Part shown: piece after piece, positions 9,916 to 55,438 of the stretch
How the letters are laid out: each line of letters opens with the position of its first letter
Numbering within the stretch: position 1 is the stretch's first letter
Assembly (NCBI GenBank): GCA_022709865.1
Contig: JAKLIA010000003.1
Location: 21,547-85,546 of the forward strand
Origin: Patescibacteria group bacterium
GTDB lineage: Bacteria; Patescibacteriota; Minisyncoccia; Portnoybacterales; GWB1-42-6
DNA length: 64,000 nucleotides
Direction of reading: 5' to 3'
Translations under genes and position numbers: made by a program
Notes under the pieces: generated by a model
Told to the model about the DNA's origin: nothing
Seen by the model: only the letters and a program-made list of their open reading frames with translations
Database searches by the model: none

Positions 9916-11253
9916 ATGGCTAAAAAAGAAAACAAAAATATGCCTAATGACTCAATGGAAAAAATAGTCGCTTTGGCTAAGCGGCGGGGTTTTGTTTTTC
10001 CGGGTTCCGAGCTCTATGGCGGGCTAGCTTCAACTTATGATTACGGCCCGATGGGTGTGGAATTGAAAAATAACATTAAGCGTTTGTGGTGGAAATATTT
10101 TGTCCAAGATAGGGACGATATGACCGGAATTGACGGCGGGATTTTGTTGCATCCCAAGATCTGGGAAGCTTCCGGGCATGTTAAAAACTTTAAGGACCCG
10201 CTAGTTGAATGCAAAAAATGCCATCATCGGTTTAGGCCCGATAAATTAAAAGATGCTAGCAAATGCCCGGACTGCGGCGGCGAGTTCACGGAAGTGAAAA
10301 TGTTCTCGGGAATGTTTAAGACCAATATTGGCGCTATAGAAAAAGAGGGAATTGAAGCTTATTTGCGGCCCGAAACCGCGCAGGCAATTTTTGCCAATTT
10401 TAAAAATGTTTTAGACTCCACCAATAAAAAGATTCCCTTTGGCATCGGGCAGATGGGCAAAGCTTTTCGCAACGAAATTACCACGGGGAACTTTATTTTC
10501 CGGACACTGGAGTTTGAGCAAATGGAAATAGAATATTTTATTGCGCCAGACAGCGATTGGCAGAAAGCTTTTGAAGCGTGGGTAGAATATATTTATGGTT
10601 TTGCCGACTTAATAGGGTTGCCGCGCCAGAACTTTTTCAACCATGAGATACCGGATGAAGAACGGGCTTTCTATTCCAAGCGCACGATCGATATTGAGTA
10701 TAACTTTCCTTTCGGGCAGGACGAGCTTTGGGCGATAGCTTATCGCACGGACTATGACCTCTCGGCCCATCAAGCGGCTTCGGGCAAAAGCCTGGAATAT
10801 TTTGACGATGAAACAAAAAAACGATTTGTGCCTCATGTCATCGAGCCGACCTTTGGCGTTGACCGGACGGTCTTGGCAATTTTGGGCCAAGCTTATGCGG
10901 AAGAAATGATGCCGGACGGGGAGCAGAGAATTGTTTTAAGATTTCATCCTCGGGTGGCTCCATACAAAGTGGCGGTTTTCCCATTGCTTAAAAATAAGCC
11001 TGAACTTATTGCCAAGGCGCGCGAAGTGTATCAAGACCTAAAAAAAGATTTTGTTTGCGTTTGGGACGAGCGGGGGAATATCGGCAAGCGCTATCGTTCG
11101 CAAGATGAAATTGGCACGCCGTTTTGCGTGACCGTGGATTTTGATTCTTTGGAGAAAGGCGATGCAACGGTGCGGGAGCGGGATTCAATGAAGCAAGAAA
11201 GAATAAAAATCAGTGAGCTGAAAGAATATTTGAAAAATAAAATAGAAAAATAA
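9916..11253 (+). CDS. glyQS: Glycine--tRNA ligase, alpha2 (class II, eukaryote/archaeal-like) type
   Basis: 445 aa with class II motifs (FRNE, GLDR) and the ECKKCHHRFR zinc-knuckle insertion typical of alpha2 GlyRS. Confidence 0.9.
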   Translation: MAKKENKNMPNDSMEKIVALAKRRGFVFPGSELYGGLASTYDYGPMGVELKNNIKRLWWKYFVQDRDDMTGIDGGILLHPKIWEASGHVKNFKDPLVECKKCHHRFRPDKLKDASKCPDCGGEFTEVKMFSGMFKTNIGAIEKEGIEAYLRPETAQAIFANFKNVLDSTNKKIPFGIGQMGKAFRNEITTGNFIFRTLEFEQMEIEYFIAPDSDWQKAFEAWVEYIYGFADLIGLPRQNFFNHEIPDEERAFYSKRTIDIEYNFPFGQDELWAIAYRTDYDLSAHQAASGKSLEYFDDETKKRFVPHVIEPTFGVDRTVLAILGQAYAEEMMPDGEQRIVLRFHPRVAPYKVAVFPLLKNKPELIAKAREVYQDLKKDFVCVWDERGNIGKRYRSQDEIGTPFCVTVDFDSLEKGDATVRERDSMKQERIKISELKEYLKNKIEK

Positions 11254-11262
11254 TTTTTATTT

Positions 11263-12207
11263 ATGAACCAAAAACAAATTCTGGAGCTGGCGATAAAAAT
11301 GGGCATAGAGGGAGACTTGAGAGGGGAGGGAGCGGTAAAAAAATATCTGGCCAGGCAAAAAAAGAAGTTTGAAAACCTACCCGCCAAGAAACAGGCGGAT
11401 TTTGATCAGGAAAAATTAGTTAACCCTTATATGGATTCTGGCATCTGGCGCGATAATGGCCAGCCGGTAAAAAAAGCTATGGCCGGCATTGATATCACCA
11501 GCGGCGACGTGATGCTTGCCAAATCTTTGGGCATCGACACAATTATAAACCATCATCCTTTGGGCAAGGGGCTGGCGATGTTGGACGAAGTAATGCATTT
11601 GCAAGCAGAAGTTCTATCTCTGTATGGCGTGCCAATAAATATTGCCGAGTCATTATTGCGGGTGAGAATATCGGAAGTGGGGCGGGGCGTGCACGCTTCT
11701 AATTCTTATAAAACTATCGACGCGGCTAAGTTAGCCGGGATTAATTTAATGAATGTGCATACGCCTTGCGACAATTTGGTAGCTAGCTTTTTAAAAAAAC
11801 TGATCGATAAAAAGCAGCCCGAATACGTCGGTGAAATAATCGAGTTGATCGCCGGCATTGATGAATATAAGGAATCGGCCAGGCGTGGCTCGCCGGTGAG
11901 GCTTTTTGCCGGTTCGGAAGACCGCCATGCCGGGAAAATTGCTTTGACGGAAATTACCGGCGGCACCGAGGGTTCAAAAACCATCTATAAAGAAATGGCT
12001 AACGCCGGCATTGGCACGATCGTGGCGATGCATTTATCCGAAGAACACCGCAAGAACGCCGAAGAAGCGCACTTGAGCGTGGTGGTAGCTTCGCATATCG
12101 CTTCTGATTCTTTGGGCATGAACTTGTTCTTGGATGAATTAGAGAAAAAAGGGATCGAAATTATTCCTTACGGCGGACTGATAAGAGTTAAAAGAAAGCA
12201 GCAATAG
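11263..12207 (+). CDS. Nif3-family (YqfO/YbgI-like) dinuclear metal-centre protein
   Basis: D-x-I-INHHPL motif and a C-terminal HLS..H cluster; size fits the family. Confidence 0.5.
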   Translation: MNQKQILELAIKMGIEGDLRGEGAVKKYLARQKKKFENLPAKKQADFDQEKLVNPYMDSGIWRDNGQPVKKAMAGIDITSGDVMLAKSLGIDTIINHHPLGKGLAMLDEVMHLQAEVLSLYGVPINIAESLLRVRISEVGRGVHASNSYKTIDAAKLAGINLMNVHTPCDNLVASFLKKLIDKKQPEYVGEIIELIAGIDEYKESARRGSPVRLFAGSEDRHAGKIALTEITGGTEGSKTIYKEMANAGIGTIVAMHLSEEHRKNAEEAHLSVVVASHIASDSLGMNLFLDELEKKGIEIIPYGGLIRVKRKQQ

Positions 12208-12289
12208 TTAGATCTTTAAAGTTTTTGGAAAATAAAAACCGCCTAGGATAACCTTGGCGGAAGCAGTTGGCCTGCTCGGTCCTGTTGCT

Positions 12290-12520
12290 TTATAGCAATT
12301 TTCCGTCGTATTCCTCGAAGTCGCGATCCATTATCTTGCCATTAGGGTAAAAGGTGGCGCCTAGTTCATCAGGAAAAACCAGCTTCATGATCAAATGGGG
12401 AGTTCCGTCTCCCTTGGGCACCATTTCTTTTTTGGCAAGCACATCGGTCTGATCGCCAAACTCCAGGAACCAAGATTCGGCAGATTGCTTTGTAAAGAAC
12501 CCTACTGTTTGCGTTTGCAT
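12290..12520 (-). CDS. Hypothetical 76-aa protein
   Basis: ORF only; convergent with the Nif3 gene. Confidence 0.35.
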   Translation of the reverse strand: MQTQTVGFFTKQSAESWFLEFGDQTDVLAKKEMVPKGDGTPHLIMKLVFPDELGATFYPNGKIMDRDFEEYDGKLL

Positions 12521-12659
12521 GTCTCCCTCCTTATTTCTTACAGTTATTGTTATGATCGGTTAATTATATAAAATAAGCATATTTTTATAGTTATGTCTAG
12601 AATAAATAAGAAAGTTGAATATTTAAAAAATTGACCAAGGAAAATCATATTTATATTTT

Positions 12660-13922
12660 ATGTTCAAAAAAACTATTTTATCGAACGGCTTAAGAGTGAT
12701 AACTGCACCAATGGCTGGCAGCCAATCAACCACGGTGCTGGTCTTTTTTGCCACGGGCTCAAAATATGAAACAAAAGATAATAATGGCATTTCGCATTTT
12801 TTGGAGCATATGTTTTTTAAGGGCACTAAAAAACGGCCAACCACTCTAGACTTGAGTGAATACTTGGATAGAGTGGGCGGAGAATATAACGCTTTCACGG
12901 GCCAGGAATTGACCGGTTATTATGCAAAAGTGGCGCCAGAATATATCGATATGGCGCTGGATTGGGTGAGCGATATTTTACTTAATTCCAAGTTTGATAG
13001 CGCGGAAATAGAAAAAGAGCGGGGCGTGATTACTGAAGAATATAATATGTATCTTGATAACCCGGCGCGTTTGGTGGGGGATTTGTGGGAAGAGCTGCTT
13101 TATGGCGACCAGCCGGCCGGCTGGAAAATTATTGGCACTAAAGCTAATATCGCCAAATTGCCGCGCGAGCAATTTATAAAATATTTTGACGCGCATTATC
13201 AAACCAAGAATGCGGTGGTTTGTGTGGCAGGGAAAGTCAGCAAAGATATTATTAAAAAAATCGAGAAGTCCTTTAGCCGTTTGAAGAAAGGTGAAGGGAA
13301 AGATAAATTAGCTGTTAAAGAATCGCAAGAAAAACCGGAGGCGCTTATCTATTATAAAGCGACCGACCAAACTCATTTGTGCTTGGGTGCGCGCGCTTAT
13401 GATATGTCCCATAAAGACCGCTACACCTTGATGGTTTTATCGGCCATCCTGGGCGGCATGATGAGTTCTCGGCTTTTTATTTCTGTGCGCGAACAAAAAG
13501 GCTTGGCTTATTATGTTCGTTCCAGCACCGAAAGTTTTACTGACACGGGATTTTTTGTGACCCAAGCCGGCGTGGCCAATGACAAGGCGGAGGAAGCCAT
13601 AAAAGCGATCTTGATTGAATATAAAAAAGTTTGCGATGCCAAAATTGGCGCGGCGGAAATTAATAAAGCCAAAGACTGGCTGCGGGGGAGCTTAAGGCTG
13701 GGGCTGGAAACTTCTGATGAGCTAGCTTCCTGGATCGGCACGCAAGAAATCTTGAAGAAAGAAGTTTTGACACCAGAGCAGATTTTTAGCAAAATAAAAG
13801 CAGTTAGCGCGCAAGACTTGCAGCGGGTAGCCCAAGATATTTTCCAGCCGCAAAAGCTTAACTTGGCGCTGATCGGACCGTTCAAAGAAAAAAATAAGTT
13901 CGAGCCATTGCTTAAATTATGA
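12660..13922 (+). CDS. M16 family zinc peptidase (insulinase-like)
   Basis: Inverted zincin motif HFLEHMFFKGT near the N-terminus. Confidence 0.8.
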   Translation: MFKKTILSNGLRVITAPMAGSQSTTVLVFFATGSKYETKDNNGISHFLEHMFFKGTKKRPTTLDLSEYLDRVGGEYNAFTGQELTGYYAKVAPEYIDMALDWVSDILLNSKFDSAEIEKERGVITEEYNMYLDNPARLVGDLWEELLYGDQPAGWKIIGTKANIAKLPREQFIKYFDAHYQTKNAVVCVAGKVSKDIIKKIEKSFSRLKKGEGKDKLAVKESQEKPEALIYYKATDQTHLCLGARAYDMSHKDRYTLMVLSAILGGMMSSRLFISVREQKGLAYYVRSSTESFTDTGFFVTQAGVANDKAEEAIKAILIEYKKVCDAKIGAAEINKAKDWLRGSLRLGLETSDELASWIGTQEILKKEVLTPEQIFSKIKAVSAQDLQRVAQDIFQPQKLNLALIGPFKEKNKFEPLLKL

Positions 13923-14929
13923 CCCAAAAAATAGAGATCTCCACTTCCACTATTTTCCGTTTTATCCTAATAGTTTTAGGGTTGATTTTTCTTTTCTTGA
14001 TCCGCGATGTTATTTTAATAGTTTTTGTCGCTTTGATCATTTCGGCGGCTATTGACGCGCCGGTTGATTGGCTGGCTAGGCACCATATACGCCGGGCTTT
14101 AGGCGCTTCAATGATCTATGTGCTTATATTTGTTCTATTGCTCTCTTTTGTTTATTGGGCTTTTCCTATTTTAGCCGGCCAGCTTCAGTCTTTAGCCTCT
14201 ATGTCTCCGGAGTATTTAAATAGGATCGTGGCGGATATTTCCATTTTTCACCAAAAGCTGGGCGCCGATTATGCCCAAAAACTTTTAGGAAACTTAAGCA
14301 CACTGCTTAGCGGCGCAACGGAAGATATTTTTGGCACAGCGGCTAATATCTTTGGCGGATTCTTTTCTTCCATTGTTATCGTGGTGATATCTTTTTATCT
14401 GGTGGTGCAAGATAAAGGCATTAAGCTTTTTTTATCCAGCGTTACTCCAGCTGAGCATCGGGCCTATGTCATCAATTTGGCTGAGCGCATCCAAACAAAG
14501 CTTGGCCGATGGTTGCGCGGGCAGCTGATAGTGATGATGGCTGTTGGCGTTCTAGTTTTTACAGGGCTTTATTTTTTGGGAGTAAAAATGGCTTTAATGG
14601 TGGCAGTTTTGGCTGGGCTGTTTGAACTCATCCCTTATATTGGGCCTTTCACGGCCGGCGCTATCGCAGTTTCATTGGCTTTCTTGCAATCGCCGATTCT
14701 GGGCATTTTAGTATTAGTGTTGTTTTTGATCATCCACCAAATAGAGGGTTATGTTCTAATTCCTCAAGTCATGAAGCGGGCGGTGGGGCTGAATCCTTTG
14801 GTGGTTATTATTTCTATGATAATCGGCGCTAAACTTTATGGCATCTTTGGCATGGCGGTGGCCGTGCCCATCGTGGCGATCGCTTCGGTCTTTTTGGGTG
14901 ATATTTTTATGAGAGAAGAAACCAGATAA
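13919..14929 (+). CDS. AI-2E family transporter (PerM/YhhT, UPF0118)
   Basis: Eight predicted TM helices with the family's typical pattern; the start ATGA overlaps the upstream stop. Confidence 0.7.
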   Translation: MTQKIEISTSTIFRFILIVLGLIFLFLIRDVILIVFVALIISAAIDAPVDWLARHHIRRALGASMIYVLIFVLLLSFVYWAFPILAGQLQSLASMSPEYLNRIVADISIFHQKLGADYAQKLLGNLSTLLSGATEDIFGTAANIFGGFFSSIVIVVISFYLVVQDKGIKLFLSSVTPAEHRAYVINLAERIQTKLGRWLRGQLIVMMAVGVLVFTGLYFLGVKMALMVAVLAGLFELIPYIGPFTAGAIAVSLAFLQSPILGILVLVLFLIIHQIEGYVLIPQVMKRAVGLNPLVVIISMIIGAKLYGIFGMAVAVPIVAIASVFLGDIFMREETR

Positions 14930-14990
14930 TAATAAAAAAGTGAAACAAAAACCCCCGCTTAAGCGGGGGTTTTTAATAATTGCCAGCCTG

Positions 14991-15485
14991 TTATTTTTGT
15001 TTTTTTATTATGCGCCGCGTTTGCCAGAGAACAAGGATTGCTGCGGCCGCAACGGCTGTTTCGGCTATAATGCGCCAAAATAAAAAATCAATTCCATCGG
15101 AAAAATGGATTTGATGATGGAAATTAATCAGTGGATCTAAAAAAGTCAGATTCCAATTAAAAAATACTTGAGCTAAAGCATGGACGAAAATAAAGCCGTC
15201 AGGGAGGATAGCAAAAAAAGCGCCGATTAGCGCCGGTTTAGCCAGGCGAGAATGTTTAAGAAGCAAGCTTATGACGCTAACGCCGACTAAAATATCAAGC
15301 AAGGCTTCAACGGTTATGGCCAGGAACTCATTTCCGGAAACGCCAACTATTTTAATTACGTATTCCCAATGGGGGATAGCATCAAGAACAAAATGGGAAA
15401 TCAGGGCAATAATAAAAATAGCCCAATAATTTTTTATTTTAGAACCAATAGCGGCACCAACGAGGAGGTGGGGAGTAAGTATCAC
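14991..15485 (-). CDS. Membrane protein, possible membrane-bound metal-dependent hydrolase (YdjM/DUF457-like)
   Basis: Polytopic protein with His/Asp motifs (HFVLDAIPH, ILPD). Confidence 0.35.
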   Translation of the reverse strand: MILTPHLLVGAAIGSKIKNYWAIFIIALISHFVLDAIPHWEYVIKIVGVSGNEFLAITVEALLDILVGVSVISLLLKHSRLAKPALIGAFFAILPDGFIFVHALAQVFFNWNLTFLDPLINFHHQIHFSDGIDFLFWRIIAETAVAAAAILVLWQTRRIIKKQK

Positions 15486-15524
15486 AAGTTTGAAACTTTA
15501 AAGGTTTTCATTTAAACTGAATCT

Positions 15525-16202
15525 ATGGGAACATTATATATTATTGCGACACCTCTTGGCAATTTGAAAGACATAACTTTTCGGGCGATTGAAGCCTTAA
15601 AGGAAGTTGATTTGGTGGCGTGCGAAGACACTCGCCAGACAGTAAAGCTTTTGAACCATTACCAAATCGCCAAACCATTAGTAAGCTATTTTCAGCATAG
15701 CAAGTTGTCAAAAATCGAATATTTAGCAGAGCAATTAGCGCAAGGAAAAAATCTAGCGCTGGTCACGGATGCCGGCACCCCTGGGATTTCCGATCCCGGC
15801 AATAAGTTAATCGAAGAATTAACGCGCTTAACAAGCGGCCAAATAAAGATCGTTCCACTTCCCGGGCCTTGTGCCGCTATTGCTGCTTTGAGCGTGTCTG
15901 GTTTTCCGACTGATAAGTTCGTGTTTATGGGTTTTCCGCCGCATAAAAAAGGGCGAAATAAATATTTTGAAGAAATTGCGCAAGCCCAGCACTCGGTGGT
16001 TTTTTATGAATCGACCCATAGGATCTTAAAGGCGCTGGAACAGCTGAAAGAGCTGTTGCCCGAGCGCCAAATTATGGTAGCGCGCGAGCTAACCAAAATG
16101 TTTGAAACGATATACCGAGGAAGCGCAGAGGAGATTTTAGGCATTTTAAATAGCGATAAAAACAACTTAAAAGGGGAGTTTGTGGTGGTGGTAAAAAAAT
16201 AG
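15525..16202 (+). CDS. rsmI: 16S rRNA (cytidine1402-2'-O)-methyltransferase
   Basis: LYIIATPLGNLKDIT and VACEDTR motifs of the tetrapyrrole-methylase-fold RsmI family. Confidence 0.85.
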   Translation: MGTLYIIATPLGNLKDITFRAIEALKEVDLVACEDTRQTVKLLNHYQIAKPLVSYFQHSKLSKIEYLAEQLAQGKNLALVTDAGTPGISDPGNKLIEELTRLTSGQIKIVPLPGPCAAIAALSVSGFPTDKFVFMGFPPHKKGRNKYFEEIAQAQHSVVFYESTHRILKALEQLKELLPERQIMVARELTKMFETIYRGSAEEILGILNSDKNNLKGEFVVVVKK

Positions 16203-16227
16203 AATCAGAAACTTAATTTTAATAAAT

Positions 16228-18318
16228 ATGAAAAATAAATTATTGATTGCGCTAGCAGCTGTAATTTTAGTTGTGGCCGCGGGTCTGGGCTGGAATTATT
16301 TTAAAAAAAGTTCAGAGCCCTCTTTGGCTGTCAGCTATACAAATGTAAACGTGGCAATAGACAATATCAATAATCGCTTATATGTTGCTGACAATGGTTC
16401 AAATAAAATAGATATATACGATTTAAATACTTTAACGTTGTCTGGCTCAATAATGCTAAATGAGCCTTCAGACGATGCTCTGCGTCTTTATATCGACGAA
16501 AACGAAGGAGTCGCTTTGTTGAACAGCAAATCCAATAGTCAATTTAAAGTTTTGGATTTAAGCACTAAAAAGATCAGATGCCAAATAGAAGTTGGCCAAG
16601 ATAGCGTTGGTTGGATAGACGCAAGAAATAAGCAATTTTTCCAAGCCGCGGCTGCTCAATTTAATTTGTATGATTATAATTGCCAGCAAAAAAAATCAAT
16701 TGCCAAAGATGGCACGATCCTATCTAAGATATCCGAAGCAGGGGAGATAGGCGTTCTCAGAGAAAAAGATTCACGGTTAAGCATTATGGACCTGGTGAGC
16801 GGAAATATTATTGATTCCTTTTATTTATACAGCAATAACTTCACGCTCTTGCCCCAGCATAATATGTTATTGAGCAACGATTGGCTGGTGGTCAATTTTA
16901 ACCGGGGGACAACAACCGATGTTGATTTTTACGATAGGAGCACAAAAATAACTTCTTGGTTTAATACTTCCGGGTCGACGGCTGCCCCTTCTTTAAAGCC
17001 GGTTTATCTGGCAGGCGATCTATACTTTTTGGGCCTGGAAGATAATGGCGAACAGGAGATTATTGTTGTCGATCTACAAAATAAAAATGTTTTGGATAAA
17101 ATTGCTGTCAGCAGCGATACGGTATCTTACGCGGTAGATTCGCTCGGAGAAAATATTTTTATTTTGAATAAATCTGGAAAAATCGAGAAAAAACAAGTGG
17201 CGCCTGTTGATGGGCCGGCGGCAACTACAATAACTAAGCCTCTTAATTTTGGAGTCATGCTTCATCTGGAGGGGCAATTAAGCTTTCCGAACAAAACAGA
17301 ATATCTCCGTGTTAACTCCAATCTTAAGCAGATTATCGACCTGTTTAAAAAATATAATGCAAAAATAACGATTGAGTCAGAGACACCATATATTGAGGCG
17401 GCTAACAAATGGGGAGACAACTTGCTTCTTTATGCTTTAGAAAACGGCCAAGGTGTAGGCACTCACTGCGATTTTGATTCAATGTCCCAAAGCGAAGCGG
17501 CTGCGGCTTATAAAAAGAGGAAAGATGCAATTGATGCAGCGGTTGGCGCGGAAAACAATCTCGGGTGCTCCGGGGGCTGGGGAACACATGATTGGGCCCA
17601 GGCTGCTTTTAGCGCGGGCTTCTCTTATTTGGACGCTCCGATAATGATTGCCTATCTGGCCGTGCCTGAAGAAAATAGGCCGATTAATCCTGATACAGGT
17701 AAGCATTATACTGACGCCGAAATAAGCCCGCAATCCAAATTGTATTACCATGATGTAATTCCTTATGAGCTAAGCGACCGAATCTATCCGAGGCGCCTTA
17801 AAGATACAAATGATTTAACGGGGGATAATTCCGGAATTGTTTTGATTCCCGGTTCTTTAGGCGAGATACCAGCTTTATATGAGGGCCGAAGCACTTGTTA
17901 TCCTAGTTGCGAGTTGACCAATAAAGATATCGATTATATTTTTAATGCTATCGATCAGGTGAACGGTTTTAAGGATGATTCTAAAGTTTCTTCTCTGTAT
18001 CTTCATTTTCCTATAGATACAATAGTGATGCCTTCTTCAAAGAAAGAAGAAAATCTAAAAATTGTAGAAGATTGGTTGAAGCGGATGCAGGAATACCAAA
18101 CTCAAGGAAAAATTAAATGGATGACCATGAAAGAAATATACGAAGAATATTCTGGAACAAAAACGAGCATTAAATCTTGGACTCCTAAGCCAAGCCAAAC
18201 TCCTAGTCTTCGGCCGTCACCTAGCCAATCGCCATCAGTTCAAGGCAAATGCGGCGATGGTGTTTGTGGGCCGATAGAAAAAGCTAATCCGGCTTTATGC
18301 CCGCAGGATTGCAAGTAG
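16228..18318 (+). CDS. Hypothetical secreted/anchored protein, 696 aa: N-terminal signal/TM, YVTN/NHL-like beta-propeller repeats, a central carbohydrate-esterase-like region, a Pro/Ser/Thr linker and a Cys-rich C-terminal tail
   Basis: The YVADNGSNKIDIYD repeat; a PKPSQTPSLRPSPSQSP linker; and the terminal KCGDGVCGPIEKANPALCPQDCK. Confidence 0.55.
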   Translation: MKNKLLIALAAVILVVAAGLGWNYFKKSSEPSLAVSYTNVNVAIDNINNRLYVADNGSNKIDIYDLNTLTLSGSIMLNEPSDDALRLYIDENEGVALLNSKSNSQFKVLDLSTKKIRCQIEVGQDSVGWIDARNKQFFQAAAAQFNLYDYNCQQKKSIAKDGTILSKISEAGEIGVLREKDSRLSIMDLVSGNIIDSFYLYSNNFTLLPQHNMLLSNDWLVVNFNRGTTTDVDFYDRSTKITSWFNTSGSTAAPSLKPVYLAGDLYFLGLEDNGEQEIIVVDLQNKNVLDKIAVSSDTVSYAVDSLGENIFILNKSGKIEKKQVAPVDGPAATTITKPLNFGVMLHLEGQLSFPNKTEYLRVNSNLKQIIDLFKKYNAKITIESETPYIEAANKWGDNLLLYALENGQGVGTHCDFDSMSQSEAAAAYKKRKDAIDAAVGAENNLGCSGGWGTHDWAQAAFSAGFSYLDAPIMIAYLAVPEENRPINPDTGKHYTDAEISPQSKLYYHDVIPYELSDRIYPRRLKDTNDLTGDNSGIVLIPGSLGEIPALYEGRSTCYPSCELTNKDIDYIFNAIDQVNGFKDDSKVSSLYLHFPIDTIVMPSSKKEENLKIVEDWLKRMQEYQTQGKIKWMTMKEIYEEYSGTKTSIKSWTPKPSQTPSLRPSPSQSPSVQGKCGDGVCGPIEKANPALCPQDCK

Positions 18319-22520: not shown

Positions 22521-25118
22521 ATGAAATATGACCACAAAAAGATAGAAAAAAAGTGGCAGAAATATTGGGCTGAAAATCCCAAACTCTTCGCGGCGGATGA
22601 TAAATCTGATAAGCCCAAACAATATATCTTGGATATGTTCCCGTATCCTTCGGGCGACGGGCTGCACACCGGCCATGTGGAAAGCTATACCGCCACGGAT
22701 ATAATCTCGCGTTATTTGCGGATGAGCGGCTTTAATGTTTTGCACCCGCAGGGTTTTGATGCTTTTGGTTTGCCCGCGGAAAACTATGCCATTAAAACCA
22801 AGATTCATCCGGCCGAAACCACTAAGAAAGCCATCACCAATTTTAAGAAGCAGATGAATATGATGGGTTTCTCTTATGATTGGTCGCGGGAAGTTATATC
22901 GGCCGATCCGGAATATTATAAATGGACCCAATGGTTTTTCTTGCTGCTCTATAAAAACGGTTTAGCCTTTAAATCAAAAGGAAAAGTTAATTGGTGCGAT
23001 TCTTGCCAAACGGTGCTCGCCAACGAGCAAGCTGAAGGGGGAGTGTGCGATAGATGCGGCAAGCCGGTGAGGCAAAAGGATTTAGAGCAGTGGTATTTTA
23101 AAATTACAGATTTTATAGAGGATACCGGCAAAACTTCTGGTTTATTGTCGGGCTTAGATAAAATTGACTGGCCCGAATCAACCAAGGCTGGGCAGCGCAA
23201 TTGGATCGGGAAATCCGAAGGCGCACAATTTAAAATGGAAATTGTTACAAAAGATTCTGTCATTCTGAGCCCAAAGGGCGAAGAATCTAAAAGATCCTTC
23301 GTTAACACTCAGGACGACAAATTGCATTTGTCGGTTTTCACCACTCGCTTAGACACGGTTTTTGGCATGACTTTTGCGCTGATTGCGCCGGAGCATAAAT
23401 TAGTTCAAGAATTAAAATCAAAAATTACCAATTGGAGCGAAGTAGAAAAATATATAGTTGAAACCAAAAAGAAATCTGAACTTCAGCGCATGGCGGAGGT
23501 GAAAGAAAAAACCGGCGTGGAGCTAGAAGGCATTAAAGTTTTAAATCCTTTCACTAAAAAAACTATTCCGCTTTTTGCCAGCGATTTTGTGCTGGCGCAC
23601 TATGGCACGGGTGCTGTTATGGCAGTGCCGGCGCATGATGAGCGGGATTTTGCCTTTGCCAAGAAGTTTGGTTTGCCGATAGACGAAGTGGTAAAAAGCG
23701 TGGACGGCAAATCATCTGTTGCCAAAGAAGCCTACACGGAAGACGGCGTTTTGATAAACTCTGGCGAGCATAACGGCTTAACTTCCGCTGAAGCTAGAAA
23801 AAAATTAACCCAATGGCTCCAAAAAGAAAAAATCGGGCAGGGCACGATAAATTATAAACTCCGTGATTGGCTGGTTTCCCGCCAGCGCTATTGGGGCGCG
23901 CCAATTCCCATTATCTATTGTGATAAATGTGGTGAGGTGCCGGTGCCAGAAAAAGATCTGCCGGTTTTATTGCCCAACGATGTTGATTTTATGCCGACGG
24001 GCGAATCGCCCTTAGCGATTTCCAAAAAGTTCCATGATATAAAATGCCCAAAGTGCGGCGCTAAAGCTCGCCGGGAATCTGATACCATGGACACCTTTGT
24101 TTGTTCTTCTTGGTATTATTTGCGTTATGCCGATAGCCAAAACGACAAAGAGTTTGCTTCCAAGGAAATGCTAAAAAAATGGTTACCGGTTGACTTATAC
24201 GTTGGGGGAGCGGAACACACGGTTTTACATCTTTTGTATTCGCGATTTTTTACCAAGGTTTTGCATAAGCTTGGTTATATAGATTTTGACGAGCCATTTT
24301 CCAAAATGCGGCACCAAGGAATAATTCTAGCGCCGGACGGCCGGAAAATGTCCAAGTCTTGGGGCAATATTATCAATCCCGACGATGTGGTCGCCGAATA
24401 TGGCGCTGATGCCTTGCGCTTGTATGAAATGTTTATGGGGCCGCTGGAAGAAATGAAACCTTGGAATACCAAGGGGATTGTTGGAGTAAAAAGATTTTTA
24501 GACAAAACATGGAATTATCTTTCCGCAGATTATACGGGCATATTCATAGATAATAATGATCGGAATCAATGGATAGAAGGTAAGATAGATGGAGCTACTT
24601 CGCGTGAGACAGAAGTTTTATTGCATAAAACAATAAAAAAGGTTTCTGAGGATATTGAAAGTTTGAAGTTTAATACGGCAATTAGTCAGTTGATGGTATT
24701 GAGAAACTCTTTTTATGAAATAGAAGCGAAACGACCAATATCAGAAAAATCTTATATTGAACCAATAAAGGGGCAGCGTATAAAGAAATCTGATTTTGAA
24801 AAATTTATTATTCTTCTTGCTCCATTTGCTCCTTTTATAGCTGAGGAGATCTGGCAAGGAGTGTTAAAACATAAGGGAAGTATCTTCAATGAGGAATGGC
24901 CCAAATATAATAAAGACTTAGTTAACGACGAAACCATACAGATGCCGATTCAAATCAATGGCAAAGTCCGCGCTGTGCTAGCCGCATCAGCAACTATTTC
25001 AGAAGAAGATGCCAAAAAACTTGCTTTATCCGATTCTAACGTTATCAAATGGTTAGAAGGCAAAGAGCCTAAAAAAGTTATTTTTGTGAAAGGAAGATTG
25101 GTTAATATTGTGGTATAA
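22521..25118 (+). CDS. leuS: Leucine--tRNA ligase
   Basis: HTGH (HIGH) and KMSKS motifs and a CP1 editing domain. The start is taken at MKYDHKK, preceded by the AAGGAAGGGG ribosome-binding site. Confidence 0.9.
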   Translation: MKYDHKKIEKKWQKYWAENPKLFAADDKSDKPKQYILDMFPYPSGDGLHTGHVESYTATDIISRYLRMSGFNVLHPQGFDAFGLPAENYAIKTKIHPAETTKKAITNFKKQMNMMGFSYDWSREVISADPEYYKWTQWFFLLLYKNGLAFKSKGKVNWCDSCQTVLANEQAEGGVCDRCGKPVRQKDLEQWYFKITDFIEDTGKTSGLLSGLDKIDWPESTKAGQRNWIGKSEGAQFKMEIVTKDSVILSPKGEESKRSFVNTQDDKLHLSVFTTRLDTVFGMTFALIAPEHKLVQELKSKITNWSEVEKYIVETKKKSELQRMAEVKEKTGVELEGIKVLNPFTKKTIPLFASDFVLAHYGTGAVMAVPAHDERDFAFAKKFGLPIDEVVKSVDGKSSVAKEAYTEDGVLINSGEHNGLTSAEARKKLTQWLQKEKIGQGTINYKLRDWLVSRQRYWGAPIPIIYCDKCGEVPVPEKDLPVLLPNDVDFMPTGESPLAISKKFHDIKCPKCGAKARRESDTMDTFVCSSWYYLRYADSQNDKEFASKEMLKKWLPVDLYVGGAEHTVLHLLYSRFFTKVLHKLGYIDFDEPFSKMRHQGIILAPDGRKMSKSWGNIINPDDVVAEYGADALRLYEMFMGPLEEMKPWNTKGIVGVKRFLDKTWNYLSADYTGIFIDNNDRNQWIEGKIDGATSRETEVLLHKTIKKVSEDIESLKFNTAISQLMVLRNSFYEIEAKRPISEKSYIEPIKGQRIKKSDFEKFIILLAPFAPFIAEEIWQGVLKHKGSIFNEEWPKYNKDLVNDETIQMPIQINGKVRAVLAASATISEEDAKKLALSDSNVIKWLEGKEPKKVIFVKGRLVNIVV

Positions 25119-25830
25119 GTTTTTAATGATAGATAAATTAGAACAGGAAGCTCTAGACTTTATAAAGAAGAAGGAGAACTATAAGAAAATTATAGAGCGT
25201 TTTGCTGGAAAAGACTTTATTTCGGAGGGACTACCAATTTCTTTGTTTATGGCTGGTTCTCCTGGAGCGGGAAAAACAGAAATATCAAAAAGGCTTGTAG
25301 AGACTTTTGAAGTGGATCGAAAGGCAAGAATAGTTAGAATTGACCCAGACGAGATTAGGGAGCTGTTGCCAGGATACAACGGAAATAATTCGAATTTATT
25401 TCAAGGGGCTTGTTCTGTTGGCGTAGAAAAAATACATGATTATGTATTGTCTGCTGATAAAAGCTTTCTTTTAGATGGAACATTTTCTAATTATGAAAGA
25501 GCAAAAAATAATATAGAAAGATCTCTAAACAAAAGAAGGTTTGTGACACTAGTATATGTGTATCAAGATCCTCTGATAGCGTGGGAATTAACAAAAAAAA
25601 GAGAAGCGCTAGATGGAAGATTTGTGCCTAAAGAGGCATTTATAAGACATTTTTTTGGGGCAAGAGACACTGTTAATAAAATAAAGGCTGAGTTTGGTAA
25701 TGCAATACAGGCACATCTGATAGAAAGAAATATGCATTCCCCTGATTATAAGATTCAATTAAATATTAAAAATGTTGACGATTTTGTAGAGATAAAATAT
25801 ACTGAAGACACGCTAAAAACAAGCATATGA
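25108..25830 (+). CDS. Zeta-toxin/AAA_33-like P-loop kinase, 240 aa
   Basis: Walker A motif GSPGAGKTE in a zeta-toxin-like context. The start overlaps the leuS stop. The local sequence is AT-rich relative to its flanks. Confidence 0.5.
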   Translation: MWYKFLMIDKLEQEALDFIKKKENYKKIIERFAGKDFISEGLPISLFMAGSPGAGKTEISKRLVETFEVDRKARIVRIDPDEIRELLPGYNGNNSNLFQGACSVGVEKIHDYVLSADKSFLLDGTFSNYERAKNNIERSLNKRRFVTLVYVYQDPLIAWELTKKREALDGRFVPKEAFIRHFFGARDTVNKIKAEFGNAIQAHLIERNMHSPDYKIQLNIKNVDDFVEIKYTEDTLKTSI

Positions 25831-50621: not shown

Positions 50622-51917
50622 ATGGACAAAACAAAAATAATTTTATTTTCAGCTCTTGGCCTGATAGCTGTTATTGTTATCGCGGTTGTCATAATAAATC
50701 CTTTCAAAGAAGACACGGCCACACCTATAACCTTGGAGTTTTGGAGCGTTTTTGATGATTCCAGCGTCTATAAGCCCTTAATAGATAAATATAGAGAGCT
50801 ATATCCGAATGTCACTATAAATTATTATAAAAAGAACATCACTTCTTACGAAGATGACTTGGTGGATGCTTTAGCGGCTGGCCGCGGTCCGGATATTTTT
50901 TCCATCCATAATACTTGGCTGCCAAAGCACATAGATAAATTAGCGGCTGCGCCGGCAAGCTTGGTTACAACTAGCCGATATAATGAAGTTTTTGTGGATG
51001 TAGCCAGCCAGGATTTTATTGATAGCGGCAAGATTTATGCTTTTCCTTTATCGGTTGACTCTCTAGCGCTTTTTTACAATAAAGACCTGTTTAACTCGGC
51101 CGGCATAACCAGCGCGCCAAAAACTTGGACCGAGTTTAACGCGGCGGTGGAAAAATTGACCAAGCGCGACGCGAAAAATAATATTTTGCAAGCCGGCGCG
51201 GCTCTGGGCACGGCTGAAAATGTTAACCGCTCAACGGATATTTTATCGGCTTTAATGCTGCAAAGCGGCGCAGTCATGGTGAGCGAGGAGAAGACCGAGG
51301 CAGCTTTTAACCAAAATATTTCTTCATCCGGGGAAACTTTTAACCCCGGCAAACAAGCCCTTATTTTTTATACTAATTTTGCCCGGCCCGCGCTTAAGGT
51401 TTATACCTGGAATAGATTGCAGCATTATTCCGTGGACGCTTTTGTGGAGGGGCAGGCGGCGATGATGTTAAATTACGCCTATCAAATACCGATAGTCCGT
51501 GCCCGAGCGTCGCATTTGAACTTTAGCGTGGCGGCTCTGCCGCAAATCTCCCAAAGCGGCAATAAAGCCACCTTTGCCAATTATTGGGCGCAGGCAGTTA
51601 GCCAAAGCTCGCCTAATCAGGCGGCGGCTTGGCAATTCATCACTTGGTTATCTTCTCAGGAAAACAGCCGTGAATATTTAACCGCGACTAAAAAACCGGC
51701 CGCAAGGCGCGATTTGATAGATGAGCAAAAATCCGATGCAGACCTGGGAGTTTTTGCCCAGCAGTCTTTATATGCTAAATCTTGGTGGGAAGTTGATAAT
51801 TTAGCCATTGAGGGTATTTTTGCCGATATGATAGAATCAGTGGTAGGGAATAGCGCCACAGCAGCCGATGCCTTAGAAGTGGCTAACACCCAAGTATCAG
51901 CTTTAATGAGGGATTAA
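50622..51917 (+). CDS. Extracellular solute-binding protein (ABC transporter, family 1 sugar-type)
   Basis: N-terminal TM/lipobox-like anchor and the SBP_bac_1 pattern. No permease is adjacent. Confidence 0.65.
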   Translation: MDKTKIILFSALGLIAVIVIAVVIINPFKEDTATPITLEFWSVFDDSSVYKPLIDKYRELYPNVTINYYKKNITSYEDDLVDALAAGRGPDIFSIHNTWLPKHIDKLAAAPASLVTTSRYNEVFVDVASQDFIDSGKIYAFPLSVDSLALFYNKDLFNSAGITSAPKTWTEFNAAVEKLTKRDAKNNILQAGAALGTAENVNRSTDILSALMLQSGAVMVSEEKTEAAFNQNISSSGETFNPGKQALIFYTNFARPALKVYTWNRLQHYSVDAFVEGQAAMMLNYAYQIPIVRARASHLNFSVAALPQISQSGNKATFANYWAQAVSQSSPNQAAAWQFITWLSSQENSREYLTATKKPAARRDLIDEQKSDADLGVFAQQSLYAKSWWEVDNLAIEGIFADMIESVVGNSATAADALEVANTQVSALMRD

Positions 51918-51921
51918 TTTT

Positions 51922-52329
51922 ATGAATAAAAATATTTTCAAAAAAATATTAGTTCCGTGCTTGGTTATCGGTTTTGCTTTTTTTGTTATCTGGCCGGTTG
52001 AAGCGGCTGGCCTTTTGCCTAATTGCCGGGCAGCCTCTTGCACCCCTTGCCATTTCTTGCAATTGATCAGTAATGTGTTGCTTTTTGTGGTTAAAAATAT
52101 AGTCGCGCCGCTGGCTGGACTGCTTTTTTTGATAGGTGGTATAATGATGGTATCAGCAGGCGGATCGGAAGAGCGGTTTAAAAAAGGTAAAGAGATGTTC
52201 AAAAATGTGGCGATCGGCGTTCTAATAATTTTGGCTTCTTGGGCTATAGTGAACACTCTAATCACAACTTTTGGCACCAGCGTTGACGGGTTTGTTCCCG
52301 GCAATTGGTGGAGAGTTAATTGTTTATAA
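51922..52329 (+). CDS. VirB2/TrbC-like pilin paralog 1 (signal peptide plus two hydrophobic helices separated by a short charged loop)
   Basis: Signal peptide cleavage VEA|AG; helix-1 LISNVLLFVVKNIVAPLAGLLFLIGGIMMVSAG; loop GSEERFKKGKEM; helix-2 FKNVAIGVLIILASWAIVNTLI. Confidence 0.5.
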   Translation: MNKNIFKKILVPCLVIGFAFFVIWPVEAAGLLPNCRAASCTPCHFLQLISNVLLFVVKNIVAPLAGLLFLIGGIMMVSAGGSEERFKKGKEMFKNVAIGVLIILASWAIVNTLITTFGTSVDGFVPGNWWRVNCL

Positions 52330-52334
52330 AAACA

Positions 52335-53261
52335 ATGCAATTAAAATCTTATAAAACATTTTTTTTCGCGTTTTTGATAATCGGCGGTTTTTTATTCTGG
52401 GGCAGCGTTGGCCAAAAGGCGTTGGCTGCTAATTGCACTTGCGCTAATGGCAAAGATTTCACCACCCTTACCCAATCTGCGATAACCGAATACGGCAATT
52501 TGGGCGCTGCTTGCGAAATGTATTGCGCAGCCAGCGGCGGTGCCAAGATAAATGATGAGTATATCAACTCTACAGATCCTTGCGGCGGGTGTAATGACCC
52601 TGGTTTTTATTGCAACACAAGCACGGGTAGATGTGAATATGATGGTAGTCAATCTTATGATCCGACAGATCCAGAGGCAAGTAATTTGCCCAATTCGGAT
52701 TATGACCCAACTTCTTCTTCCAATTCTTCTCAAAAAAGCTCTTCTGGCGGCGGTAGCGCTTCCTTGCCAAACTTTGTCGGGGTGAGCAGCATCAGCGAAC
52801 TAATCTTAAAGATTACAAAGTTTTTGATTGCTCTAGCTATTCCTTTTGCTGTATTGATGCTTATTTGGGCGGGCTTCCAATTTGCAACTGCTCAAGGAAG
52901 CGAAGAAAAGCTTAGGACAGCAAAAAGAAATCTTGTTTGGACAATAGCAGGCATCGCGGTCATTATGGCGAGCAACGCGATCATTGGATATATTACCGAG
53001 ATCTTAGGCGGCGGCACGGGAGAAGGCAATGCGCTAATCACTACGATTAAAAATGTTCTGGACCAAATAATCGGCTTGCTGTTTATTTTGGTGACAGTAT
53101 TCTTTTTCTGGGGGATTGTGGAGTTCGTGCGGGCAAGTTCTAGCGGCGACACAGGCAAATTGGAAGAAGGCAAGAGGCATATGATCTGGGGAATCATCGG
53201 TATGGCAGTTATGGCTGGCGCTTGGGGAATCGTGAGAATAATCCAACAAGCATTCCAATAG
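52335..53261 (+). CDS. Secreted Cys-rich protein fused to two tandem VirB2/TrbC-like pilin modules
   Basis: Signal peptide ALA|ANC; N-terminal domain with 12 Cys; two modules homologous to the flanking small pilin genes. The start is taken at the ATG at 52335. Confidence 0.5.
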   Translation: MQLKSYKTFFFAFLIIGGFLFWGSVGQKALAANCTCANGKDFTTLTQSAITEYGNLGAACEMYCAASGGAKINDEYINSTDPCGGCNDPGFYCNTSTGRCEYDGSQSYDPTDPEASNLPNSDYDPTSSSNSSQKSSSGGGSASLPNFVGVSSISELILKITKFLIALAIPFAVLMLIWAGFQFATAQGSEEKLRTAKRNLVWTIAGIAVIMASNAIIGYITEILGGGTGEGNALITTIKNVLDQIIGLLFILVTVFFFWGIVEFVRASSSGDTGKLEEGKRHMIWGIIGMAVMAGAWGIVRIIQQAFQ

Positions 53262-53324
53262 AGGCTAGGAAATTATTATAAATAAAAATCCGTATGAAAT
53301 GCGGCTTGAAAGGAGGTGAGCAGG

Positions 53325-53684
53325 ATGAAAAAATTTAATGATATATTTGAAAAGGTAGCAGTTGTTGCCTTGAGCTTGATTTTTCCGACGATGGTTTTGG
53401 CAGCCGATATCAACAGCACCATAACCAGAATAACAGATATATTGAACATGGTTATCGGATTGCTCTTCGTTTTGGTTACCTTGTATTTTGTTTGGGGTAT
53501 CGTTCAGTATGTTATGGCAGCTGGCGACGAGGGCAAGATTAAGGACGGCAAACAGCATATGATCTGGGGAATCATCGGTATGGCAGTTATGGCTGGCGCT
53601 TGGGGAATCGTGAGAATAATCACTTCAACTTTTCTTTCAGGAAACAGCACCGGTATTCCAACGGGAGTAGGCAGCGGATTATAA
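53325..53684 (+). CDS. VirB2/TrbC-like pilin paralog 3
   Basis: Ribosome-binding site AAAGGAGG 9 nt upstream; signal peptide VLA|AD. It shares an identical 22-aa (67-nt) segment HMIWGIIGMAVMAGAWGIVRII with the preceding gene. Confidence 0.5.
   Translation: MKKFNDIFEKVAVVALSLIFPTMVLAADINSTITRITDILNMVIGLLFVLVTLYFVWGIVQYVMAAGDEGKIKDGKQHMIWGIIGMAVMAGAWGIVRIITSTFLSGNSTGIPTGVGSGL
53556..53622 (+). repeat. 67-bp perfect direct repeat (a copy of 53177-53243) spanning the 3' regions of two adjacent pilin-like genes
   Basis: The two segments match exactly by direct comparison. Confidence 0.8.
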
Positions 53685-53766: not shown

Positions 53767-54843
53767 CTATTTTTTGCCTAAGGTTTCATCCAATAGGCAA
53801 ACCGTTTTTGAAGCGACCGGAAGGCTTTGCCCTGGCTCTGCGTAGATATAGAGCTGGTATCCTTCCTGGCGGTGCTTGTTGGTGGCGCAATACTGCTTTT
53901 TGTCTGTTGGCCAGGGGTGCGATTTAATTTCGCCGCCCAGATCAACAAAGAACTTTGGCGGCGGGCCATCCAGGCTTTCTCTCTCCATGCAAACTCGATC
54001 GTTTAGCATGACGGTGGCTACGAATTTTGCCTCGGAAGGTATTTGAATCTGTTTTGTGACCGGCTCTGGGTTTTTTGATACAACAGGAGCGGCGATGGTT
54101 TCTTTTTTATCACCGGCATTGCCGCCAAGTGAAACTAATTTTGCTTGTACTTCAGGAAGAATTATAATCGTGATGACTATAATTAAAATAACTGAGCCCG
54201 AGACTCTTAGAAACCCCAAAATCTTTGTTGGGATTTTTGGGATAAGGCTCAGCCCCCAAAAGACAAGGCCAAGAATAAACAATCTTACTGTCCAGCTGCT
54301 AAGAAAAAAACTAATCTTTTCCGGCGTTAATCCGAAAATGTCGGTTTTGAACCAACCGGCGATGCCGGCTATTGCCAGAATGAAAAGAATCGCCGCAGCC
54401 AACCAAACATAAACCCTGTAAAACCTTATCCAAGCAGTTTCCTTATTAGCCAAGTTTGCGGTGGTAAAAATGCCAACCAGGACAATCGGGAGAATAAATG
54501 TTGCGGCCCAAAACTTCCAAATTGGAAATAAAGAAAAGAAGATCACGGTCGTGCTGCCTAAAAAAAAGAAAACATTAAGCGCTCGCGTGAACTCTGTTCC
54601 AATCTCTTCTTTTAAAAGTTTGGCTAAGAACAAGGAGTCAACCGCTATCCCGCCTAGATGCCAAATAGTTGCAGCTGTGGCCAAAACCCAGAGGACTCCA
54701 ATGATTGGTAATGCCGGATGCATAACTTCTTGCGTTAGGCCGGCTATCGCCAACATAACTACAAAAAGCAACAACCAGTCCCAAACCAACACAGAGACTC
54801 CAAGTTTTATATTCTTTCTGAACAAGTTAATCATAGCCCACAT
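53767..54843 (-). CDS. Polytopic membrane protein (6-7 TM helices) with a C-terminal extracytoplasmic Cys-containing domain; possible VirB6/TrbL-like protein
   Basis: Hydrophobicity pattern; positioned convergently to the pilin cluster. Confidence 0.45.
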   Translation of the reverse strand: MWAMINLFRKNIKLGVSVLVWDWLLLFVVMLAIAGLTQEVMHPALPIIGVLWVLATAATIWHLGGIAVDSLFLAKLLKEEIGTEFTRALNVFFFLGSTTVIFFSLFPIWKFWAATFILPIVLVGIFTTANLANKETAWIRFYRVYVWLAAAILFILAIAGIAGWFKTDIFGLTPEKISFFLSSWTVRLFILGLVFWGLSLIPKIPTKILGFLRVSGSVILIIVITIIILPEVQAKLVSLGGNAGDKKETIAAPVVSKNPEPVTKQIQIPSEAKFVATVMLNDRVCMERESLDGPPPKFFVDLGGEIKSHPWPTDKKQYCATNKHRQEGYQLYIYAEPGQSLPVASKTVCLLDETLGKK

Positions 54844-54855
54844 AATCGTTCCTCC

Positions 54856-55404
54856 TTATCGGAATAAGATGTCAGCTAAACGGCTGACGAAGTGTTTTTC
54901 TTTGTGTTCTTCTGCATAAAGCTCTAAACTCTTGTTCGTGGCGCCGACAGTATAAGCTATTTGCAGCGCCACTTTTTCAAGAGCATTGCCCATGTGCTCT
55001 AATTCGTGCTCCAATTGGTGGGTAAGAGAAGAATGAGATAATGCTTCAAATAATTGATCAAGCACCTCAGGGTTCGCTTTAGCTATCTGAGCCATAACGA
55101 CTCTGGCCTCATTAGTATCCAAAGACCCGTCGTCTTTTAAAGGTAGGGCAGCAGAAATTGTCATAACCATTTCTTTCATTCTGCCTTCTTCTTTGGCTTT
55201 TTTGAGTAGATAACGAAAAGATTCTGCATCTTCCGGTTCGAGCATCAGTATGGCCCTCATAAAACTTGCCTGGGGCGGATGCTTAATGAAGCTTTGTATT
55301 TTTTCTCCCATAATTCCTGTCCCTTGAGACATAAAGGTTTTTAGAACTCGGGTAACAATTTGGTCTACTGCTCCACCTAAAAATATGTCTTTAATGCGTC
55401 CCAT
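54856..55404 (-). CDS. Hypothetical 182-aa protein
   Basis: ORF only. Confidence 0.4.
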   Translation of the reverse strand: MGRIKDIFLGGAVDQIVTRVLKTFMSQGTGIMGEKIQSFIKHPPQASFMRAILMLEPEDAESFRYLLKKAKEEGRMKEMVMTISAALPLKDDGSLDTNEARVVMAQIAKANPEVLDQLFEALSHSSLTHQLEHELEHMGNALEKVALQIAYTVGATNKSLELYAEEHKEKHFVSRLADILFR

Positions 55405-55438
55405 ATTTTCTCCTTTTTGATTTTTTTATTTTGTCTTT

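Follow-up and report, generated by a model that had tools for sequence, protein, structure and literature searches.

Within a stretch of 64,000 nucleotides (nt) from the genome of a Patescibacteria group bacterium (assembly GCA_022709865.1, contig JAKLIA010000003.1, positions 21,547 to 85,546), referred to here as the 64-kilobase (kb) window and used for the numbering of all positions given below, three consecutive open reading frames (ORFs) on the plus strand at 51922-53684, namely genes A, B, and C, are identified with high confidence as an array of VirB2-like pilins. The locus is the Patescibacteria-type pilin array in its Paceibacteria/Portnoybacteria form, and it encodes four hairpins, each of which consists of two long hydrophobic helices as judged by hydropathy: one in A, two in B (B1 and B2), and one in C. 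A first-pass annotation, made from the letters of the sequence, had described three consecutive genes with four two-helix modules, and the ORFs, the hydropathy, and the AlphaFold models all agree with that description.

The Patescibacteria are ultrasmall bacteria that live on other microbes and draw what they require from these hosts. In S. epibionticum ML1, the one species tested, a type IV secretion system (T4SS) cluster, SEML1_0006-0019, and the pilin array inside it are essential (Wang et al. 2023, Cell; PMC10633639). VirB2-like pilins have also been surveyed in 1,948 VirB4-positive Patescibacteria assemblies, where pilin detection relied on the Pfam models PF04956 and PF18895 (Quinonero-Coronel et al. 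2025, Microb Genom; PMC12102498). That survey reported 441 arrays of 2-11 tandem pilin genes, with a within-array identity of 25% on average and 54% at most, and Paceibacteria is the largest class in its dataset.

Genes and domains of the array

The array is composed of the following parts, with protein lengths in amino acids (aa):

51922..52329, plus strand: gene A, 135 aa, an A-type VirB2-like pilin with one hairpin
52335..53261, plus strand: gene B, 308 aa, a fused double pilin with an N-terminal secreted domain
52428..52667, plus strand: secreted Cys-rich domain of B, residues 32-111, strain-hypervariable and without a Pfam match
52668..52763, plus strand: linker of B, residues 112-143, Ser/Asp/Pro-rich and of low complexity, its composition taken from the sequence
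52764..53015, plus strand: module B1, residues 144-227 of B, a B1-type hairpin by module alignment
53016..53258, plus strand: module B2, residues 228-308 of B, a B2/C-type hairpin
53325..53684, plus strand: gene C, 119 aa, a C-type pilin with one hairpin and no Cys

For two of the genes another start is available: a TTG at 52320 would give a B protein of 313 aa, overlapping the end of A, and an ORF start at 53316 would give a C protein of 122 aa. The ATG start of C has an AGGAGG site 7 nt upstream, and the call of 119 aa is repeated in other assemblies. Gene A has three cysteines at its mature N-terminus (C35, C40, and C43) and one in penultimate position (C134), a pattern that is kept in its orthologues. 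Regarding the middle gene, the first-pass annotation had recognized the fusion of a secreted Cys domain to two pilin modules, and the fusion is real; the cysteines between residues 32 and 111 number eight (34, 36, 60, 64, 83, 86, 93, and 100) and not 12. The same two-module layout is present in 54 homologues of gene B.

Family assignment

The comparison with the hidden Markov models (HMMs) of the TrbC/VirB2 and T4SS_pilin families, which the first-pass annotation had proposed as a check, places all three proteins in PF18895 (T4SS_pilin, cut-off 26.6 bits), with 38.1 bits for A, 78.8 bits for B in two stretches, and 42.3 bits for C. In PF04956 (TrbC, cut-off 27.9 bits) only B is included, and narrowly so, with 28.6 bits, A remaining below the cut-off (21.1 bits, E = 3.7e-4) and C having no match. 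These values, i.e., 38-79 bits for PF18895 and 28.6 bits for TrbC in B, support the earlier view of the proteins as VirB2/TrbC-like and not as type IV prepilins. The same preference is seen in 49 diverse modules taken from related loci, of which PF18895 matches 47 and TrbC 23 (E <= 0.01, the best being E = 1e-8). Moreover, B (through B2) and C each reach 32.7 bits (E = 4.4e-8) with NF045849, the model of Mbov_0395 from a Mycoplasma integrative and conjugative element; this falls short of the curated cut-off (40 bits), so that the two proteins are relatives of that family and not members of it.

Homologues named by NCBI are called either "pilin" or "TrbC/VirB2 family protein" and come from Candidatus Portnoybacteria. 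More generally, the homologues belong to Patescibacteria and the syntenic loci to Portnoybacteria/Paceibacteria, in line with the origin from the Candidate Phyla Radiation (CPR) that had been proposed. The three genes also fall under the definition of an array used in PMC12102498, which is 2-11 genes matching PF04956 or PF18895, either in tandem or with one non-pilin gene between them. At a larger scale, a profile of the double pilin retrieves 46,370 cluster representatives at 50% identity (E <= 0.001), including polyproteins with up to 8 modules, and the fusion of modules to each other, or to extracellular domains, is not unique to this locus.

An example of such a polyprotein is found in the locus L090 (JGI Ga0265297_10004127, 9925-16481), where a protein of 820 aa has 8 tandem pilin modules and is followed by a pilin of 155 aa, a pilin-PKD fusion, and a PKD-repeat protein of 718 aa. 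Its context is housekeeping, with neither a gene for a solute-binding protein nor VirB4 nearby.

Two other identities were considered. A type IV prepilin is recognized by a class III signal peptide, made of a short basic leader and the motif G|F/M-x-x-x-E, and by a single N-terminal hydrophobic helix; this candidate was rejected because the leaders are Sec-type with AxA sites, each module has two helices, and no Pfam N-methylation-motif or pilin model is matched. The other identity, raised already in the first-pass annotation, is that of unrelated small membrane proteins, such as a holin or a bacteriocin-immunity protein, and gene C does match Phage_holin_10 weakly (E = 0.015, 15.8 bits). However, this match is far under the 27-bit cut-off and spans only 23 residues, PF18895 is significant in A, B, and C, the neighborhood is housekeeping with no phage or bacteriocin context, and the locus is part of the core genome throughout a bacterial class. 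We hold this identity to be extremely improbable, and the PF18895 matches together with the class-wide conservation effectively refute it.

Hairpin topology and cysteine parity

The first-pass annotation had assigned a signal peptide to every module, which is correct as far as the genes are concerned: there is one per gene, three in all and not four, given that B2 comes directly after B1, to which it is joined by the linker GGGTGEGN. The predicted signal peptides cover residues 1-28 of A (cut site VEA|A) and 1-26 of C (VLA|A), and the leader of B is Sec-type with a predicted cut at ALA|A, all three sites being deduced from the sequence. The hallmark of the VirB2 type is found in this design, namely a predicted signal peptide and then two hydrophobic helices with a short basic loop. 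Each inter-helix loop has 3-5 Lys or Arg residues, as opposed to 0-1 at the termini and in the B1-B2 linker, and because of this concentration of positive charges the loops are predicted, by the positive-inside rule, to be cytoplasmic and all the ends to be outside.

The AlphaFold model of B has a predicted local distance difference test (pLDDT) score of 67.5 and contains long helices at residues 153-185, 190-224, 230-270, and 273-307, and that of C has a pLDDT of 77.8 with helices at 29-64 and 69-107. The Cys-rich domain of B is modeled as two short helices and a beta-hairpin (pLDDT 56-83), followed by residues 112-144, which have a pLDDT below 50 and are modeled as disordered.

The terminal cysteines of these pilins tend to come in even numbers. 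Their count is even in 130 of 140 distinct single-module pilins that contain Cys; an odd count at the C-terminus is paired with an odd count at the N-terminus in 29 of 33 cases, and in pilins without a C-terminal Cys the N-terminal count is even in 75 of 81. This parity, along with the predicted location of both termini outside, suggests that an N-to-C disulfide may staple the hairpins closed. In RP4 TrbC and Agrobacterium VirB2, closure is achieved by head-to-tail cyclization, and the predicted disulfide closure would be a functional parallel to it.

Module types and their order

The A, B1, and B2/C modules are distinct types, ~20-27% identical to one another, and each type is 52-75% identical to its orthologues in the two Portnoybacteria genomes that were compared. 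Within the third type, B2 shares 61% identity with C and 70% with its own orthologue in the relative L001. When type-specific HMMs were built and every module of every array was assigned with them, the order A - B1 - (B2/C-type) x 2-5 was recovered almost everywhere across ~80 Paceibacteria species. The module types A, B1, and B2/C are ancient, and their fixed identity and order fit a heteromeric assembly in which the subunits have set roles and are not interchangeable antigenic variants.

Some features of the array depend on the lineage. The fusion of B1 to B2 is characteristic of a Portnoybacteria-like clade, and outside this clade it is often the first (A-type) gene that has a large Cys-rich extension, with 10-18 Cys. 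Elsewhere in the family, pilin modules are fused to other Cys-rich or PKD domains.

The operon and its solute-binding protein

The array does not stand alone, and two further elements complete the transcription unit:

50622..51917, plus strand: gene of a membrane-anchored family-1 (carbohydrate/MalE-type) solute-binding protein (SBP), 431 aa, SBP_bac_1 113 bits
53712..53764, plus strand: likely terminator, a GC-rich hairpin and then a U-rich run, located between convergent genes

The SBP is anchored by an N-terminal helix, and its relatives in NCBIfam and the Protein Data Bank (PDB) are only distant MalE-type or oligosaccharide-binding proteins. Its gene ends 4 nt before A; A and B either overlap or are 5 nt apart, and B and C are separated by 63 nt that include the AGGAGG site. 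The hairpin downstream of C folds with -25.5 kcal/mol (z = -3.84), none of 200 shuffled sequences being as stable, and it is likely to be the intrinsic terminator that ends the operon. It was missed by a scan for promoter and terminator consensus sequences, whose matches were not above those in shuffled sequences, and was later found by folding.

To place this arrangement among the relatives, one genome per GTDB species was scanned (275 relatives, 79 loci kept), ORFs were called in 85 loci including the window, and the neighboring genes were clustered. An SBP gene is directly upstream of the array, on the same strand, in all 72 loci that have an upstream flank, with a median gap of 6 nt and a gap of at most 50 nt in 61 of them; the remaining 13 loci begin at a contig edge. 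No lipobox was found among the SBP genes of these 72 loci. The SBP gene is usually preceded by genes for a methyltransferase (62 loci) and for GyrA (53 loci), which agrees with the order in the window, i.e., GyrA, an S-adenosylmethionine-dependent methyltransferase, and the family-1 SBP. The gene order of the array itself is repeated in two Portnoybacteria genomes, whose B proteins are 51% and 45% identical to that of the window, and in one strain that is ~92% identical. The pilin unit is vertically inherited, and it lies in a conserved housekeeping neighborhood. PMC12102498 makes no mention of the linkage to an SBP, and a count of the word "solute" in its text gives 0.

Probable gene conversion and strain variation

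The helix 2 sequences of B2 and C share a perfect direct repeat of 67 nt, whose two copies are:

53177..53243, plus strand: repeat copy 1, in helix 2 of B2, the putative recipient of gene conversion
53555..53621, plus strand: repeat copy 2, in helix 2 of C, the putative donor of gene conversion

The repeat had been noted in the first-pass annotation, with the first copy as given here and the second placed one position too far, at 53556-53622. Two further assemblies of this organism (ENA, JGI) contain both copies, with 0 mismatches over 12 kb, so that an assembly artifact was ruled out. The tract that B2 and C have in common comprises 22 identical codons, 17 of which are degenerate, compared with 9 identical codons among the 26 conserved degenerate ones outside the tract, and the chance probability of the repeat is ~1.5e-8 when calculated from how codons are used at the remaining conserved residues of the two paralogues. 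Over the same stretch (32 codons), the two modules differ by 6-8 synonymous and 8-14 non-synonymous changes in seven other genomes.

The strain L085, whose flanking genes are ~92% identical to those of the window, allows the direction of the exchange to be proposed. Its C tract has 3 differences from the window in 22 codons, whereas 16 of the 22 codons differ in its B2 tract (12 synonymous differences and 4 amino-acid changes), and because of this a conversion from C into B2 in the lineage of the window is suggested. The comparison with L085 and the codon statistics support the recent gene conversion that had been claimed earlier, with C as the probable source and B2 as the probable target. 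The divergence between the two strains is distributed unevenly, as seen in the synonymous-codon differences of the window against L085:

SBP: 19%
A: 19%
B1: 34%, with amino acids 100% identical
B2: 59%
C: 13%

The nucleotide identity of B2 to its L085 counterpart is only 72%, and the N-terminal region of B cannot be aligned between the window and L085 (gene at 1862-2821 of the latter), measuring 143 versus 154 aa and containing 8 versus 16 Cys. In orthologues the Cys-rich domain of B has 4 or 0 Cys, and across the homologues its length and Cys count vary widely. On this evidence gene B is a hot spot of allelic replacement or recombination, with a predicted exposed domain that is specific to the strain. 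The N-terminal domain of B is the part that changes most between strains, module B2 less so. This strain-specific domain is the sole part of the idea of "variation" that has support in the data.

The wider form of that idea, put forward in the first-pass annotation, is that the array acts as an antigenic or phase-variation repertoire in which recombination between copies alters the pilus surface. In its favor are the conversion tract, which is real and joins B2 and C, the sharp differences of the N-terminal domain of B and of B2 between near-identical strains, and the analogy with Bartonella and Anaplasma by which antigenic variation is raised in PMC12102498. Against it, the module types are as divergent from one another, and as close to their orthologues, as described above, in an order that does not change within the class; the conversion affects a transmembrane helix and homogenizes the copies instead of diversifying them; all the genes belong to one operon with one terminator; and the sequence is identical in three assemblies. 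No inverted repeats were found at the locus, no further pilin modules or silent cassettes in the 64-kb window, and no frameshift in the poly-T tract, which is in frame in all the relatives. With ancient types, a fixed order, and no switching element, the claim of antigenic or phase variation was not borne out, and we regard it as very improbable. Phase variation by slippage was also considered, when the start of B seemed truncated in L085, and was dropped once the alignment proved to be in frame, leaving only a difference in the start-codon call.

Possible link to a type IV secretion system and proposed mechanism

Putting these elements together, we consider it moderately probable that the array encodes a heteromeric pilus assembled by a T4SS and displaying the variable domain of B. 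Each protein would be exported by Sec and its signal peptide cut at the AxA site, after which each hairpin would be embedded in the membrane, its Lys/Arg-rich loop facing the cytoplasm and its two ends facing outward. The subunits would then be taken up by a monoderm-type (MPF-FATA-like) T4SS encoded elsewhere in the genome and built into a pilus or stalk, each module type having its own place in it. The hypervariable Cys-rich domain, on its flexible linker at the outward N-terminus of B, would be displayed and could bind the host cell, and a disulfide probably ties the termini of A together. The 67-nt repeat would be a by-product of paralogy, through the recent conversion from C to B2, and not a mechanism of variation.

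With regard to the secretion system, VirB4 is listed as present in 8 of 12 related array-bearing draft genomes (PMC12102498, Table S1), and a review of 2025 puts forward the speculation that material from the host is taken up through the pilus as a conduit. Several observations weigh against a T4SS-assembled pilus. The genome sequence read for T4SS genes amounts to ~72 kb: the Pfam scan of the gene-like ORFs of at least 110 aa, a few of which have no match, detected neither VirB4, nor VirD4, nor VirB6 in the 64-kb window, as the first-pass annotation had stated for the first two, and the ~8 kb beyond it contain RecG and a protein of ~3,800 aa and no T4SS gene. A candidate VirB4, defined by size and a Walker A motif, is within ~10 kb of the array in 0 of the 85 loci, where the unassigned ORFs of at least 450 aa with Walker A are only FtsH and one ORF of 507 aa, the latter unscanned; in this respect the array lacks the VirB2-class trait of being encoded near virB3/virB4. 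For 4 of the 12 relatives, including one with the same three-gene layout, VirB4 is listed as absent, which is weak evidence coming from incomplete metagenome-assembled genomes (MAGs). According to the same review of 2025, a pilus has so far been seen in no Patescibacterium. As for the structure, no solved pilin in the PDB is reached by a profile built from the double pilin, which has 0 matches, or by one built from 49 single modules, which matches only chance membrane or designed proteins, and Foldseek returns nothing beyond generic helical hairpins without significance; the cleavage of the signal peptides, the topology, and the disulfides are themselves predicted. Finally, a classical T4SS pilus gives no reason for the constant presence of an SBP partner.

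The SBP is at the heart of the main rival, in which the proteins would form an envelope module that is independent of a T4SS, their hairpins remaining in the membrane or making a short surface assembly that works with the co-transcribed SBP to capture, take up, or sense host-derived carbohydrate, and in which "pilin" would describe ancestry only. The SBP gene directly upstream in 72 of 72 loci, with its small median gap, speaks for this alternative, and so do the lack of VirB4 near any of the 85 loci and in 4 of the 12 listed genomes; however, the former adjacency may partly reflect general synteny, as the block of gyrA, methyltransferase, SBP, and array is conserved whole, and the VirB4-negative genomes are incomplete drafts. 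Likewise, no ABC permease or ATPase for the SBP was found in the 64-kb window, and DctQ is weakly matched by 3 of the 49 modules, but these matches (best E ~0.005) are at the level of chance membrane-protein matches in the same scan, and the homology is to TrbC/VirB2-type pilins and to no permease family. In addition, hairpins of two helices released by cleavage of a signal peptide correspond to no known design of an SBP-dependent transporter. We consider an envelope module of this kind to be rather unlikely.

A further account is that the Paceibacteria array is a separate, universal operon of the form SBP - A - B1 - (B2/C)n, which makes a nutrient-scavenging organelle out of a conjugative pilus; we rate it as unlikely. 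The product would be a heteromeric surface filament or conduit with a fixed place for each type of subunit, whose hairpins would be closed by N-to-C disulfides replacing the peptide cyclization of TrbC/VirB2. The strain-specific Cys-rich head would recognize the host, and the SBP would capture host-derived glycans at the base.

Neighboring genes

Downstream of the array, the window contains genes for VanW, HSP20, PrsW, and TsaD, and the genes located farther away are mostly housekeeping, including those for tRNA synthetases, NusA, trigger factor, ClpP, FtsH, and others. A variable slot adjoins the array on its downstream side:

53767-56176, minus strand: three genes without a Pfam match, encoding a multi-pass membrane protein of 358 aa and proteins of 182 and 245 aa

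The content of this slot differs among relatives, with a protein of 251 or 272 aa and a Band_7 protein in L001/L004, and proteins of 300 and 339 aa in L085; the proteins of the slot and their counterparts are linked only by weak similarity. Four other observations regard genes that are more distant from the array:

25108-25830: a zeta-toxin-family gene (Zeta_toxin, 123 bits), directly after the leucyl-tRNA synthetase gene
16228-18318: a protein of 696 aa with a weak C-terminal match to the Cys-rich RET_CRD (E = 4e-5) and faint beta-propeller matches, possibly a further secreted surface protein
61387-63414: a C39-family peptidase gene (155 aa) and then a gene for 518 aa without a Pfam match, a pair that is kept in L087-L089
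17712-21557 of L087/L088, ~6 kb past the right end of the window: the gene of the ~3,800-aa protein, which has a Peptidase_S74 match and is probably a surface fiber or adhesin

Significance and comparison with known systems

In Paceibacteria, the array forms an operon of the core genome, coupled to an SBP in every case and physically apart from virB4, and it combines fixed subunit types with one exposed domain that varies with the strain. It offers several handles for further work: its defined set of subunits can be modeled structurally, one domain is a candidate for recognition of the host, and a possible connection of the "pilus" with nutrient capture can be put to the test.

Among the systems to which the locus can be compared, the classical TrbC/VirB2 pilins, i.e., RP4 TrbC and Agrobacterium VirB2, share with it the signal peptide, the two helices, the short basic loop, and the ends outside, and B passes the Pfam model. 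In contrast, the similarity is marginal (28.6 versus 27.9 bits for B, less for A, and none for C), the host is monoderm, no virB3 or virB4 is adjacent, and there are several fixed paralogue types instead of one major pilin. Nor is there evidence here of the cyclization of those pilins, whose part may be played by the paired terminal Cys. B2 and C match nearly the whole 80-position profile of Mbov_0395 (NF045849), which also comes from a wall-less/monoderm setting with conjugation of the MPF-FATA type, whereas the locus of the window is not on a mobile element and has no conjugation genes nearby. As in the VirB2 paralogues of Bartonella and Anaplasma (cited in PMC12102498), several virB2-like genes stand in a row, but those paralogues are thought to serve antigenic variation, and here the types and their order are conserved across the class within one operon.

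The closest systems are the arrays already published in Patescibacteria (PMC10633639, PMC12102498), which likewise consist of divergent pilin genes in tandem, in a monoderm CPR host, and are recognized by the same Pfam models, so that this locus is ordinary in kind and no new category is called for. It departs from them because it is neither in nor near a T4SS cluster and always follows an SBP gene, and because two of its modules are fused in one protein with a hypervariable Cys-rich domain; furthermore, B2 and C are 61% identical with a 67-nt tract that is 100% identical, compared with the maximum of 54% reported within arrays in PMC12102498. Relative to both of these papers, the features that appear to be newly described here are that an SBP gene invariably accompanies the array, that the subunit types follow a fixed order, that the array is separated from virB4, that the Cys-rich head of B is replaced from strain to strain, and that the Cys counts show parity.

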